Below, piece after piece: positions 4,301 to 34,829 of a stretch of 64,000 bases of DNA (positions are counted from its first letter, which is position 1; every line of letters starts with the position of its first letter). This stretch comes from Candidatus Berkelbacteria bacterium (GTDB lineage Bacteria > Patescibacteriota > UBA1384 > DTJR01). Made by a program: the position numbers and the translations under genes. The stretch covers positions 338 through 64,337 of the forward strand of contig JAOUGE010000005.1 of NCBI GenBank assembly GCA_029865605.1, in the 5' to 3' direction. A model generated the notes under the pieces. It saw only the letters and a program-made list of their open reading frames with translations, made no database searches and was not told the origin of the DNA.

Positions 4301-5016
4301 TGAAACTTAGGAGTTTTACCCTAGTCGAAATATTAATCGCCTCGACAATATTTACGATTGTGATTATGACGGCTGTCTCCACCTTCGCCTTAATCAGACG
4401 TTCAAATTACAAATCAGCCGACAGCAAGGTGGCTGCCAGCTGCGCCAGGCAAATTGAGGATTTTATCAAAGCCGAAGTTACATCTTCCAATACCTCGCCG
4501 AGGATTGAGCTGATTAAGCAATCCCAGACTAACCGTAACCGTTATAGTATTTCTTCTGTGCCGGGTTTTGACCCGAGCAATTATCCTGTTTTAGGGCTGG
4601 CTCTCTTCCAGGGAGGGCGGGTTAAATTGATTTTCAAAGACCCTTCTCGCTCAGCTAACGGGGGTACTTATAGATATAAAAATGTGGTCTTAGCCTCCTA
4701 CACAAGCGACATTAAGCCAGGGGGAAATATTAATAATCTTTTGATTGCCGATTCATCTCCTCTTTTCTCTGATGAATGCCGAACTAGGGATGAAAATGAG
4801 ACTTTCCGCCTTAAATTTAGAGAAAAATACCCCGTGCAGACCACCACTCCGAGTACTGACGTTTCGGACGATATATACGAGGTGCAGATGGAAGATTCCG
4901 TTTTTCGCTATATTAAAGATGCAGGCAATTTAGATGACCAGTGGGCCCGGGCAGAAGATCAGGGAACGGTATCAAGGATAAATCTTGATGTAACAAATAG
5001 CGTAAGTCAAATATGA
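4297..5016 (+). CDS. minor pilin (PilW/PilX-like); start moved to ATG 4297
   Basis: MMKLRSFTLVEILIASTIFTIVIMTAV prepilin signal begins at 4297, in frame with track ORF 4234..5016. Confidence 0.55.
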   Translation: MMKLRSFTLVEILIASTIFTIVIMTAVSTFALIRRSNYKSADSKVAASCARQIEDFIKAEVTSSNTSPRIELIKQSQTNRNRYSISSVPGFDPSNYPVLGLALFQGGRVKLIFKDPSRSANGGTYRYKNVVLASYTSDIKPGGNINNLLIADSSPLFSDECRTRDENETFRLKFREKYPVQTTTPSTDVSDDIYEVQMEDSVFRYIKDAGNLDDQWARAEDQGTVSRINLDVTNSVSQI

Positions 5017-6466: not shown

Positions 6467-6609
6467 TGGTAGCGGGGGTGGGATTTGGTCACAAGTCGGC
6501 GCGCATATTTTTCTTAAAGAGTGTGCCGCTCGCGACCCCGCCTCATCCCGCCGTGGCGGGACTCCGGCCTTCAAATCCCATCGCTCCCAATTCTCGGCTT
6601 ACGCCGATC
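6467..6609 (-). repeat. conserved structured element after a tRNA 3' end, copy 1 (appended to tRNA-Met)
   Basis: Minus-strand order is antisense T-loop segment GGGATTTGAAGGCCGG, hairpin CCCGCC-ACG-GCGGG, GAGGCGGGGTCGCGA, second hairpin, TTGTGACC, then a 21-nt copy of the tRNA T-loop-to-CCA end (CAAATCCCACCCCCGCTACCA). Confidence 0.8.
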
Positions 6610-6686
<77 letters not shown>

Positions 6687-7464: not shown

Positions 7465-7541
7465 GGCAACGTAGCTCAGTTGGTTAGAGCGAGGGAATCA
7501 TAACCCCTAGGTCACAGGTTCGAATCCTGTCGTTGCCACCA
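7465..7541 (+). tRNA. tRNA with anticodon CAT (Met or Ile2/lysidine)
   Basis: GGCAACG acceptor paired with CGTTGCC, D-arm GCTCAGTTGGTTAGAGC, anticodon loop ATCATAA, T-arm ACAGGTTCGAATCCTGT, encoded ACCA. Confidence 0.8.
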
Positions 7542-7659
7542 GGTTGTTTTTTGGTGAAACGGCGGATTCGAAGGCCGCAGCGAGCGAAGGCGAGCGAGGC
7601 GGGGTCGATTGCCGCGCCAGCAGGTGCGGACAAGTGACCGAATCCTGTCGTTGCCACCA
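7542..7659 (+). repeat. conserved structured element after a tRNA 3' end, copy 2
   Basis: Starts GGTTGTTTTTTGGTGAAACGGCGGATTCGAAGGCCG. Contains GAGGCGGGGTCG, hairpin CCGCGCC-AGCA-GGTGCGG and AAGTGACC. Ends with a 25-nt repeat CGAATCCTGTCGTTGCCACCAGGTT of the tRNA 3' end. Confidence 0.8.
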
Positions 7660-7727
7660 GGTTTTAAGTTAGGCCATGCCACCCCTTGCTTCGCAAGCCT
7701 ACTAGTTTTACGTTTTAAATTTTAAAT

Positions 7728-23825: not shown

Positions 23826-23900
23826 GCGGGTGTCGTATAGCGGTTATTACACGTGCTTGCCAAGCACGAGAGGGCGGTTCAATTCCGCTCACCCGCTCCA
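23826..23900 (+). tRNA. tRNA-Gly (GCC)
   Basis: GCGGGTG paired with CACCCGC, anticodon loop CTTGCCAAG, T-arm GGCGGTTCAATTCCGCT, encoded TCCA. Confidence 0.85.
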
Positions 23901-24039
23901 ACGAGATGGCCTTTAGGCCATTTTTCGTTGGAGCACCCTGCCGAGAATTGAAGGCCGGACCCCGCCACGGCGGGGGAGGCGGGGTCGCGAAATTTACCAG
24001 CAGGTAAATATTTGTGACCAATTCCGCTCACCCGCTCCA
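23901..24039 (+). repeat. conserved structured element after a tRNA 3' end, copy 3
   Basis: Hairpin plus T-tract ATGGCC-TTTA-GGCCATTTTTCG, then GAGAATTGAAGGCCGG (antisense Gly T-loop), CCCCGCC-ACG-GCGGGGG, GAGGCGGGGTCGCGA, AAATTTACC-AGCA-GGTAAATATT, TGTGACC, and a 21-nt repeat CAATTCCGCTCACCCGCTCCA. Confidence 0.85.
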
Positions 24040-27072: not shown

Positions 27073-27167
27073 GGGCAAGTGGTGAAATGGTATACACGCT
27101 AGCTTCAGGAGCTAGTGACCGCAAGGCCGTGGCTTCGCGAGGGTGGAACTCGCGAAAATACCTTGTA
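27073..27167 (+). pseudogene. tRNA-Leu-like pseudogene (degenerate T-loop and acceptor 3' strand)
   Basis: The 5' two-thirds is closely similar to the tRNA-Leu genes here (D-arm GTGGTGAAATGGTATACAC, anticodon loop TTCAGGA). The T-loop reads GGTGGAA and the 3' strand cannot pair with the 5' acceptor strand. Confidence 0.4.
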
Positions 27168-27172
27168 TTTGT

Positions 27173-28178: not shown

Positions 28179-28282
28179 ATTCTGTATCTTGTATTTTGTA
28201 TCAGGTATCTAGTATTGAACGGTGAATACATGATACATGCTACTTGATACATGATACTTTTTCTTGTACAATCTAACCTGAT

Positions 28283-28368
28283 GCCGAGGTGGTGGAATTG
28301 GTATACACGATAGCTTGAGGAGCTATGCTCGCAAGAGCGTGCAGGTTCGAGTCCTGTCCTCGGCACCA
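28283..28368 (+). tRNA. tRNA-Leu (GAG), type II
   Basis: GCCGAGG paired with CCTCGGC, anticodon loop CTTGAGGA, variable arm, T-arm CAGGTTCGAGTCCTG, ACCA. Confidence 0.85.
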
Positions 28369-28523
28369 AGCAGAACTGCCCTTGTGGCAGTTTTTTGCTT
28401 GGTGCCCCGTGGACTCGAAGGCCGGACCTCGCCACGGCGGGGGTTCGAGGGGTGGCACCTGAGAAGGGTCGCGAGGCCCGCCAGCAGGCGGGAACTTGTG
28501 ACCGAGTCCTGTCCTCGGCACCA
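28369..28523 (+). repeat. conserved structured element after a tRNA 3' end, copy 4
   Basis: Hairpin plus T-tract ACTGCC-CTTG-TGGCAGTTTTTTG, then GGACTCGAAGGCCGG (antisense T-loop), CTCGCC-ACG-GCGGGG, a variant core with an insert (GAGG...GGGTCGCGA), CCCGCC-AGCA-GGCGGG, CTTGTGACC, and a 21-nt repeat CGAGTCCTGTCCTCGGCACCA. Confidence 0.85.
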
Positions 28524-28528
28524 CAAAG

Positions 28529-28552
28529 ATCCCGCTTTAGCGGGGTTTTTCT
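28529..28552 (+). terminator. intrinsic terminator after element copy 4
   Basis: CCCGC-TTTA-GCGGG followed by GTTTTTC. Confidence 0.6.
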
Positions 28553-28616: not shown

Positions 28617-28868
28617 ATGGAGATGAATATGGCAGACACAAAAATTGGTGTGATAACACACTACTTTGACAAAATTGGGGTTGGGATCATCAAGCTTGAG
28701 GCGCCGCTAAAGAAAGGCGAAACAATTAAGATTGGCGAGGTGGAACAAGTAGTTGATTCAATGCAGGTTGACCATAAGGATATTGATGAAGGCCAACCGG
28801 GTCAGGAAGTCGGCGTCAAAGTCAGCGCCAAGGTTCGCGAAGGCGAGGAAGTTTATAAGGTAGAGTAG
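28617..28868 (+). CDS. small beta-barrel protein resembling EF-Tu/IF2 domain 2 (function unknown)
   Basis: 83 aa. KIGVITHYFDKIGVGIIKLEAPLKKGETIKIGE...VGVKV resembles a translation-factor beta-barrel domain. Weak. Confidence 0.3.
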   Translation: MEMNMADTKIGVITHYFDKIGVGIIKLEAPLKKGETIKIGEVEQVVDSMQVDHKDIDEGQPGQEVGVKVSAKVREGEEVYKVE

Positions 28869-29030: not shown

Positions 29031-29106
29031 GCCGGGGTAGCTCAGTGGTTAGAGCACTGGTCTGAAAAACCAGGTGTCGACAGTTCGATTCTGTCCCCCG
29101 GCACCA
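29031..29106 (+). tRNA. tRNA-Phe (GAA)
   Basis: GCCGGGG paired with CCCCGGC, anticodon stem-loop CTGGT-CTGAAAA-ACCAG, T-arm CGACAGTTCGATTCTGTC, ACCA. Confidence 0.85.
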
Positions 29107-29240
29107 GGCGGAATTGCGAAGCAATTATTTGACTGGTGCGGCGAACCGAGAATCGAAGGCCGGAGCGCGACGGCGCGAGGCGGGGTCGAGCGCAAAATCA
29201 GCAGATTTTGACGGGTGACCGATTCTGTCCCCCGGCACCA
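29107..29240 (+). repeat. conserved structured element after a tRNA 3' end, copy 5 (after tRNA-Phe)
   Basis: Hairpin AATTGC-GAA-GCAATT, then GAGAATCGAAGGCCGG (antisense Phe T-loop), CGCG-ACGG-CGCG, GAGGCGGGGTCGAGCG, CAAAATC-AGCA-GATTTTG, GGGTGACC, and a 21-nt repeat CGATTCTGTCCCCCGGCACCA. Confidence 0.85.
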
Positions 29241-29443
29241 TCGCGTATGTCCTCATCTGCCAGAAAAGGTAGATGTGGAGACGCGATTTGACGGGGGCGG
29301 CAGGTCGATAACCTGAGAACCTGCCGACAAGAATCGAAACGCGCAGGCTCGACGGAGCCGAGCGGGGGTCGCGAGGCCCGCCAGCAGGCGGGAACTTGTG
29401 ACCGATTTCCTGCCTGCCGGCAGGCAGGTGTCCCTCTGCACCA
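29241..29443 (+). repeat. conserved structured element, copy 6, in tandem after copy 5, with a non-cognate tail
   Basis: Contains AGAATCGAA (antisense Phe T-loop again), GAGCGGGGGTCGCGAGGCCCGCC-AGCA-GGCGGGAACTTGTGACC (identical over 36 nt to copy 4). It ends in a palindrome CCTGCCTGCC/GGCAGGCAGG plus GTGTCCCTCTGCACCA, which is not the Phe 3' end. Confidence 0.7.
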
Positions 29444-29469
29444 CTTACCCCGCATGAGCGGGGTTCAAT

Positions 29470-34577: not shown

Positions 34578-34663
34578 GGGCGAGTGGTGGAATGGTATAC
34601 ACGTTGGACTTAAAATCCAATGGTCGCAAGACCATGTGGGTTCGAATCCCACCTCGCCCACCA
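34578..34663 (+). tRNA. tRNA-Leu (TAA), type II
   Basis: GGGCGAG paired with CTCGCCC, anticodon stem-loop TTGGA-CTTAAAA-TCCAA, variable arm, T-arm TGGGTTCGAATCCCA, ACCA. Confidence 0.85.
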
Positions 34664-34782
34664 GGTTGTTTTTTGGTGAACAGGGGGGATTCGAAAGCCG
34701 GACCAGCCCAGGGCTGGGAGACGGGGTCGCACAAAAATTCAGCAGAATTTTATGAGTGACCGAATCCCACCTCGCCCACCAG
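34664..34782 (+). repeat. conserved structured element after a tRNA 3' end, copy 7
   Basis: Starts GGTTGTTTTTTGGTGAA, as copy 2 does. Then GGGGGATTCGAAAGCCGG (antisense T-loop), CAGCC-CAG-GGCTG, GAGACGGGGTCGC, AAAAATTC-AGCA-GAATTTT, GAGTGACC, and a 30-nt repeat CGAATCCCACCTCGCCCACCAGGTTGTTTT. Confidence 0.85.
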
Positions 34783-34829
34783 GTTGTTTTCGGTAGCCTA
34801 TCGTTTAACATTAAATCTGAAGGAGGCAA

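Follow-up and report, generated by a model that had tools for sequence, protein, structure and literature searches.

The element downstream of tRNA-Phe

In the window, by which we mean the whole 64,000-nt stretch of Candidatus Berkelbacteria DNA analysed in this work, the tRNA-Phe(GAA) gene is followed by an element whose parts, all on the plus strand, are as follows.

29031-29106, plus strand: host tRNA-Phe(GAA) (ARAGORN; Rfam tRNA, 74.7 bits)
29084-29092, plus strand: nt 54-62 of tRNA-Phe
29086-29106, plus strand: first direct repeat, DR1 (nt 56-76 of tRNA-Phe)
29107-29133, plus strand: spacer with the apical hairpin AATTGC-GAA-GCAATT, seen in sequence and fold, the apex of the predicted helix H0
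29133-29157, plus strand: IR-L, an inverted copy of the tRNA 3΄ end
29133-29139, plus strand: distal block of IR-L, CTGGTGC, antisense to the CCA end
29140-29148, plus strand: middle of IR-L, eroded, nine bases without complementarity
29149-29157, plus strand: proximal block of IR-L, AGAATCGAA, antisense to tRNA-Phe nt 54-62
29159-29181, plus strand: P1, with a GCC/GGC base, a GGA/GA internal loop and a covarying upper stem
29184-29220, plus strand: P2, with a GGUCG.../...UGACC base, an invariant G.U pair and an invariant bulged A
29220-29240, plus strand: tail, an exact direct repeat of tRNA-Phe nt 56-76

The earlier note on this DNA had described an antisense copy of T-loop nt 54-62 in the 5΄ module of the element, and the match is exact: AGAATCGAA (29149-29157) is the reverse complement of TTCGATTCT (29084-29092). 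A second antisense block, absent from that note, pairs CTGGTGC at 29133-29139 with GCACCAG at 29101-29107 (the CCA end plus one nucleotide). The sense copy of the same nucleotides that had been placed in the tail is present from C56 on, where 29220-29240 repeats 29086-29106 at 21 of 21 positions (nt 56-76), but nt 54-55 are missing from it. In P2 the upper stem covaries, the loop is AGCA(G) and the last pair uses C56 of the tail. The GAA loop of the spacer hairpin, together with a GUAA loop, recurs in the spacers of other copies.

Other copies in the window

Repeat finding and a profile search identified seven copies at six of the nine tRNAs of the window, namely Met(-), Met(+), Gly, Leu-GAG, Phe (two in tandem) and Leu-TAA, and found none at Cys, Leu-CAG or Val. 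The copies other than the focal one are:

6467-6609, minus strand: element 3΄ of tRNA-Met(-) (6610-6686)
7542-7659, plus strand: element 3΄ of tRNA-Met (7465-7541), here Met(+)
23901-24039, plus strand: element 3΄ of tRNA-Gly(GCC) (23826-23900)
28369-28523, plus strand: element 3΄ of tRNA-Leu(GAG) (28283-28368)
29241-29453, plus strand: second, older tandem copy at tRNA-Phe, degenerate (repeat family D2)
34664-34781, plus strand: element 3΄ of tRNA-Leu(TAA) (34578-34663)

The T-loop antisense blocks of the non-focal copies (GGGATTTGAA, GGATTCGAA, GAATTGAA, GGACTCGAA and GGGATTCGAA) each match their own host. At Met(-), the proximal block of IR-L is the complement of 6570-6579, the tail is the complement of 6467-6487 and the P2 loop is enlarged. 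IR-L consists of TGGTG (7552-7556) and GGATTCGAA (7564-7572) at Met(+), with the tail at 7639-7659, and of TGGAGC (23929-23934) and GAGAATTGAA (23943-23952) at Gly, with the tail at 24019-24039. The Leu-GAG element, in which an additional hairpin separates P1 from P2, has TGGTGCC (28400-28406) and GGACTCGAA (28411-28419), a tail at 28503-28523 and a terminator at 28525-28550. In the Leu-TAA element these parts are TGGTG (34674-34678), GGGATTCGAA (34686-34695) and a tail at 34761-34781, from which the repeat runs 9 nt further. The older Phe copy has a tail (29405-29453) with two substitutions, interrupted by a palindrome at 29409-29428, and its P2 is identical to that of the Leu-GAG copy at 40 of 40 positions.

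Several further features lie among these copies. The Met(+) (7542-7560) and Leu-TAA (34664-34682) elements have the spacer GGTTGTTTTTTGGTGAA in common, and in both GGTT(GTTTT) is repeated 3΄ of the tail (7660-7663 and 34782-34790); read from the sequence, this suggests that the spacer is part of the element and that the inserted DNA slightly exceeded one unit length. The interruption in the tail of the older Phe copy is a 20-nt perfect palindrome, CCTGCCTGCCGGCAGGCAGG, which also occurs in a near-identical strain (L124, ~330-350) at one end of an insertion of ~350 nt; this insertion is located at the 5΄ end of the orthologous tRNA-Met(-), with tRNA nt 1-22 duplicated on both sides, and may be a second small mobile element. 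At 27073-27172, directly 5΄ of the real tRNA-Leu(CAG), there is a piece resembling the 5΄ two-thirds of that tRNA with the T-arm swapped for a hairpin, CTTCGCGAG-GGTGGAA-CTCGCGAAA, for which ARAGORN made no call; an optional hairpin with the loop GGTGGAA also separates P1 from P2 in some copies (window 28432-28462; L120). Between the Leu-GAG element and tRNA-Val there is an ORF of 79 aa (28630-28868), which is missing in the syntenic locus L077, where tRNA-Leu and tRNA-Val are 13 nt apart.

Family size, hosts and tracking of the host tRNA

One scan of a genome collection and one of metagenomes, followed by nhmmer, gave 192 unique elements, 147 of which have a same-strand tRNA 5-225 nt upstream, with 19 amino-acid types represented. 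The elements are ~110-220 nt long and non-coding, with no ORF inside. All confirmed copies with a named source organism (those from the genome-collection loci) belong to Patescibacteria, and the range covers Saccharibacteria, Paceibacterota, Kaiserbacteria, Berkelbacteria and relatives; high-GC pattern matches in other phyla were not confirmed by the profile. Among pattern matches in viral contigs, one of 32 was a true element, and this near absence speaks against a phage origin.

That the antisense module follows the tRNA upstream of it, as had been claimed from the window, holds across the family and is far beyond chance. The ungapped pairing run of the antisense block has a mean length of 6.8 with its own tRNA and of 3.3 with shuffled partners, the mean local alignment score against antisense nt 54-76 is 11.9 for the own tRNA and 7.8 for the control, and scores of at least 15 were reached by 20 of 139 elements and by none of the controls. 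Copies whose module does not track the host T-loop would speak against this rule; it mostly stands, but not without exceptions. One subfamily has GAGAAGG instead of TCGAAGG at the junction, so that its pairing starts only near nt 59, a single T-loop mismatch is found in L120, and in L055 the antisense block fits the tail and not the tRNA.

Saccharibacteria-type copies (L084, L088, L053, L015, L110, L202 and others) have a common 5΄ motif, ACGAAGTGAG, within the first 5-20 nt after different tRNAs. The same copies often carry an extra hairpin with the loop AACUGCUU, which is complementary to an AGCAG loop on P1 or P2, making a loop-loop contact possible.

The core as a structured RNA

The conserved core is ~65 nt long and forms two hairpins. 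In an alignment of 29 gapless copies over P0, P1 and P2 (P0 being the pairing of IR-L with the tail), 91% of the cells are paired, against ~40% with slid partners, and 21 of the 32 pairs vary on both sides; the covariation score is 0.50 and that of shuffles 0.17, none of 500 shuffles reaching the observed value. Invariant in P2 are one G.U pair and one bulged A, the latter located 8 nt ahead of the 3΄ boundary ...GUGAC. In 50 of 50 elements the plus strand gives the more stable fold (-36.1 kcal/mol, with 95 G.U pairs, against -27.6 kcal/mol for the minus strand), which rules out a minus-strand RNA or a perfect primer-binding site. Because of the covariation and the G.U pairs, we conclude that the tRNA-sense strand folds as RNA, and we regard the strongly covarying core of ~65 nt as a new, well-supported class of structured RNA.

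As to transcription, a promoter-like site is found at 28244-28272, 5΄ of tRNA-Leu(GAG), and the sole terminator that the scan detected on that strand at this locus is the one at 28525-28550, 3΄ of the tail. In all copies where a terminator was identified (Leu-GAG, Gly and Met(-)) it is 3΄ of the element, and no internal promoter was found in the element. Element and tRNA are thus predicted from sequence to form one transcription unit; in several copies a terminator-like hairpin ahead of IR-L would limit read-through.

Folding of the tRNA-element transcript

According to the earlier note, the antisense module could either invade the T-arm of the tRNA or pair with the tail of the element to close a helix, P0, around P1 and P2. 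Both pairings exist, the second being the fold adopted by the isolated element and the first that of the full transcript. In the computed folds of tRNA plus element, however, the closed P0 form was not the minimum-energy structure in any of the 79 transcripts, and invasion of the T-arm, which had been considered incompatible with tRNA folding, is not so in these folds, since the tail replaces the 3΄ strands of the acceptor and T-stem. The minimum-energy structure of 29031-29240 is tRNA-shaped and accommodates the element between nt 55 and 56: the 5΄ strands of the acceptor stem and T-stem are taken up by the tail, IR-L captures the native 3΄ segment of the tRNA in helix H0, which is capped by the spacer hairpin, and a four-way junction with H0, P1 and P2 takes the place of the T-loop. 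In 79 of 79 transcripts from elements with good tails this refolded form is more stable than cloverleaf plus P0, by a mean of 7.4 kcal/mol, a preference that is partly generic to an antisense and a second sense copy placed after any tRNA and that comes from a nearest-neighbour model ignoring both the tertiary energy of the T-loop/D-loop contact and co-transcriptional folding, two effects that favour the cloverleaf forming first.

Since the energy preference is partly built in and the model leaves aside tertiary and kinetic effects, evidence was sought in the sequences themselves. In 18 tails with one or two substitutions, 14 of the 24 changes fall in nt 56-60 (p = 0.0016) and only 5 of the 24 in nt 61-69 (p = 0.003), the segment that would pair with the tRNA 5΄ half, a roughly U-shaped pattern that could equally reflect edge erosion of the repeat or homology-dependent homogenisation. 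Where tRNA and tail differ at nt 56-64, IR-L pairs with the base of the tRNA ten times and with that of the tail twice, and its complementarity extends into the flank past the tRNA copy in 35 elements as against past the tail in 8 (p = 1.6e-5), although this better fit to the tRNA copy could simply mean that the tail mutated after insertion. In one subfamily the T-loop part of the tail tolerates an additional, inserted hairpin. The substitutions, the discordances, the flanks and this hairpin fit the refolded chimera better than P0. About 45% of the tails are imperfect, and at many loci the chimera therefore cannot form well.

We propose, giving it an even chance, that these sequences are accessory and probably mobile structured RNA elements that use the host tRNA as a scaffold through strand exchange. 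Each copy consists of an apical hairpin, IR-L (inverted nt 54-76, often eroded in the middle), the P1/P2 core and the tail (nt 56-73/76), is inserted between the tRNA gene and its terminator, and would be transcribed with the tRNA. In the read-through transcript, IR-L would pair with the tRNA's own 3΄ segment to form H0, and the tail would then pair with the 5΄ strands of the acceptor and T-stem, so that the RNA would become a tRNA-shaped molecule in which the four-way junction with H0, P1 and P2 replaces the T-loop. In this way the element would borrow the promoter of the tRNA and, presumably, its end maturation and stability, while the contiguous tRNA copy would leave the host gene intact. 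Our confidence in the anatomy of the element is much higher than in the strand-exchange mechanism; we infer that function resides in the refolded chimera and that the family consists of selfish, mobile elements.

Occupied and empty sites among relatives

Both tRNA-Met sites are filled in the window and in a relative with 88% FtsH identity, and both are empty in relatives with 77-82% FtsH identity, where the tRNAs are directly followed by an intrinsic terminator. The window's own FtsH matches a protein from a Candidatus Berkelbacteria MAG at 100% identity. A bin labelled WS2 has the element at one tRNA-Met site with a decayed tail, one strain has an internally deleted copy, and in the syntenic locus L077 the Phe copy is present and the Leu-GAG site empty. 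Two identical copies are arranged in tandem in L035, and two orphan copies occur without any tRNA. In the element-bearing loci 149 of 312 tRNAs in total carry an element, and a minority do so outside the ascertained copies. Cores that are 95-98% identical occur at Val, Pro, Gly and Ser tRNAs, with IR-L and tail made from each host; such re-made flanks weaken the idea of a guide evolving by point mutation. The empty sites in close relatives, the decayed and tandem copies and the near-identical cores at different tRNAs lead us to conclude that the elements are dispensable and duplicative.

The family could instead serve the host, with each element acting in cis as a two-state switch, an arrangement put forward in the earlier note, on the maturation or yield of its own tRNA, IR-L disrupting the T-arm or the tail neutralising IR-L. 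We consider this unlikely. Two alternative pairings and the predicted co-transcription with the tRNA are what such a device would need, and in three genomes IR-L follows the T-stem variants of the initiator tRNA-Met while keeping a shared distal mismatch, TGGGAG. The tRNA-Met alleles are mosaic among relatives, however, and for this reason co-evolution at orthologous loci cannot be separated from re-insertion or allele replacement. A regulator of this kind is also difficult to reconcile with its absence from the same tRNAs in close relatives and from most tRNAs of the element-bearing loci outside the ascertained copies, with the persistence of decayed and internally deleted copies and with tandem arrays and orphans, and its need for a conserved P1/P2 core is unexplained.

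The elongator-type tRNA-Met 5΄ of ftsH has three different acceptor stems (GGCAACG, GGTAGTG and GACAGCG) when L275, L276, L278, L279 and L120 are compared with window 7465-7541; their distribution departs from FtsH identity, suggesting from the sequences that the tRNA allele was replaced among close relatives. Another unusual arrangement is found in L052 (~4390-4620), where a core copy with a local T-loop-like hairpin lies within a 5΄ tRNA fragment that has been duplicated and is broken in the D-loop at GTGGTC/TAATG; the intact tRNA follows ~60 nt downstream, a mirror image of the usual 3΄ layout.

Direct and inverted repeats and the origin of copies

The comparison of this layout with terminal inverted repeats plus a target duplication, made in the earlier note, is apt as a description, but the arrangement is unusual in that the inverted repeat is made from the target itself and changes with every host, and the duplication varies in length. 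The direct repeat always begins at C56, but its right end varies between the discriminator and a point >30 nt inside the native terminator, and the resulting range of 18 to >45 nt rules out a target duplication of fixed length. Tails are identical to the tRNA over nt 56-73 in 69 of 146 cases. Given that IR-L and tail are host-made around near-identical cores, the copying mechanism must yield an a - a΄ - core - a layout from the target, for which template switching, quasi-palindrome correction and an RNA/cDNA route are candidates.

One could regard the family as mobile purely at the DNA level, a MITE-like element, a single-strand hairpin transposon or the remnant of an integrase insertion, with the inverted and direct repeats as terminal repeats and target duplication and the RNA fold as incidental. 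A direct repeat beginning in the T-loop, like integrase attachment sites in tRNA genes, a core bracketed by an inverted repeat, insertions polymorphic among relatives, tandem arrays and the resemblance of a - a΄ - core - a to a product of template switching or quasi-palindrome correction all agree with this reading, which we nevertheless hold to be quite improbable. The G.U-dependent strand asymmetry is seen in 50 of 50 elements, the helices covary, unlike double-stranded binding sites (a folded single DNA strand would still be compatible), the supposed terminal repeats differ by host, with a duplication of 18 to >45 nt, and no integrase or transposase is linked to the elements among the ORFs within 2.5 kb at 167 loci. 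When these ORFs were clustered, no recurrent protein family emerged, the most shared one being present in 12 loci, and a protein search from the Gly locus matched only the window's own genome.

A mobile element propagated through RNA, or an intron-like ribozyme, appears just as doubtful. Two routes could be envisaged. The core might attach itself to C56 of a tRNA, or of a pre-tRNA, that IR-L holds in place; alternatively, a reverse transcriptase might begin at the tRNA-like CCA end of the chimera, and homology would bring the cDNA into the tRNA gene. IR-L bridges the 55/56 junction in the manner of an internal guide, the tail ends at the 3΄ end of the mature tRNA or primary transcript, and CCA is found in 11 of 59 tails, against ~3.5 expected, from loci where neither the host gene nor most of the other tRNA genes encode it. 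In the same direction point the invariant bulged A 8 nt before a 3΄ boundary ending in AC and the genuine acceptor stem and 3΄ end that the modelled chimera would have. Several IR-Ls, however, are near-perfect full-length antisense copies that include the non-CCA flank of the gene and thus derive from DNA or primary transcript; the core is only ~65 nt, no similarity to group I or II models was found (E ≤10 in the window region, E ≤5 in six other loci), the ORFs within 2.5 kb at the 167 loci include no reverse transcriptase, and the intact upstream tRNA copy needs extra steps. In its boldest version, which is likewise improbable, this would be a new RNA-based mobile element with the tRNA as both target and template: a guide-like IR-L would align nt 55/56, the core would catalyse its own attachment to C56 or recruit an enzyme, and the CCA-ended chimera would be copied into DNA. 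If true, it would amount to a tRNA-templated retroelement of bacteria or to an 'intron' of the T-loop, and no counterpart of it is known.

Relation to known families and systems

Our results identify an undescribed family of accessory elements in Patescibacteria, located between a tRNA gene and its terminator. A full-text literature search found no description of such an element, and the paper on tRNA introns of Patescibacteria (group I introns in the anticodon loop) makes no mention of the T-loop, CCA or duplication. Rfam 15 at the gathering threshold matched tRNAs only. With the E-value limit relaxed to 10 for the window region and to 5 for six further loci, no match overlapped an element core (IR-L, P1, P2); two matches at chance level (17.1 bits, E 6.1; 19.7 bits, E 2.6) touched the edges of two elements, and no match was to a self-cleaving ribozyme (hammerhead, twister, pistol, hatchet or HDV-like).

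The elements share with tRNA-gene integrative elements (tyrosine-integrase attL/attR, T-loop sublocation) a repeat of the tRNA 3΄ end starting in the T-loop (21 of 21 positions in the focal copy; the 69 of 146 tails mentioned above), an intact gene and variable presence. They differ from them in being 110-220 nt long without an integrase or other gene, and in having an extra inverted copy of the target, an RNA core with covarying helices and a repeat of variable length. Like MITEs and REP/BIME-type repeats, they occur in many copies, are short and non-autonomous, and have inverted ends with a duplication flanking them; in MITEs and these repeats, however, the inverted ends are a family constant, and MITEs have a target duplication of fixed length, whereas here the ends are copied from each host tRNA and the repeat ranges from 18 to >45 nt, and the elements occur strictly in one orientation at tRNA 3΄ ends with a strand-specific fold containing G.U pairs. 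To our knowledge, none of IS200/IS605, IS91, integron attC, the IS110 bridge RNA or the TnpB guide-RNA systems fits an intact upstream tRNA together with target-derived inverted repeats.

The elements and the tRNA introns of Patescibacteria are both structured RNAs associated with tRNA genes of this phylum, and in both an antisense segment within the RNA spans the insertion point and a bulged A lies close to the 3΄ boundary. Unlike those introns, the element follows a complete tRNA instead of interrupting it, sits at the T-loop position and not in the anticodon loop, and has no catalytic core or Rfam intron match. Group I introns have a conserved P3-P9 catalytic core and interrupt the host gene; here there was no Intron_gpI match, and the core is two hairpins of ~65 nt with a complete tRNA upstream. 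Among the features of group II introns, an invariant bulged A is present 8 nt before ...GUGAC, but there was no Intron_gpII match, and both domain I and a 5΄ GUGYG are missing.

Pairing that is specific for a tRNA and includes its NCCA end is also known from T-box leaders and from retroviral primer-binding sites, the latter being complementary to the 3΄-terminal 18 nt. A T-box riboswitch combines specifier (anticodon) pairing with an antiterminator ahead of the gene that it regulates. The element resembles them in this tRNA-specific pairing with the NCCA end, but has no downstream expression platform or reverse transcriptase gene, and its target is the 3΄ segment of the adjacent tRNA itself; there was no T-box match in Rfam, and the element lies downstream of the tRNA, with a terminator 3΄ where identified. 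In the tRNA-miRNA genes of the herpesvirus MHV68, in mascRNA/MALAT1 and in engineered tRNA scaffolds, the promoter, shape and processing of a tRNA are used to make another RNA. The element would do the same under our proposal, but its predicted scaffold would arise by strand exchange, from a duplicated 3΄ end and an antisense trap, with the payload in the T-loop.

Significance

What do these elements mean for their hosts? Patescibacteria have tiny genomes, and despite this six of the nine tRNA genes in the window carry an element. In these phyla the elements call for caution in tRNA annotation, in the prediction of att sites and genomic islands and in tRNA-seq mapping. Whatever agent copies the elements must, at every new site, generate the target sequence twice, once inverted and once direct, and we know of no described bacterial transposition pathway that makes both. 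An antisense trap for the 3΄ strand of the tRNA, combined with a spare 3΄ strand, would, if the modelled refolding is correct, constitute a natural strand-exchange design that turns a tRNA into an RNA carrier.
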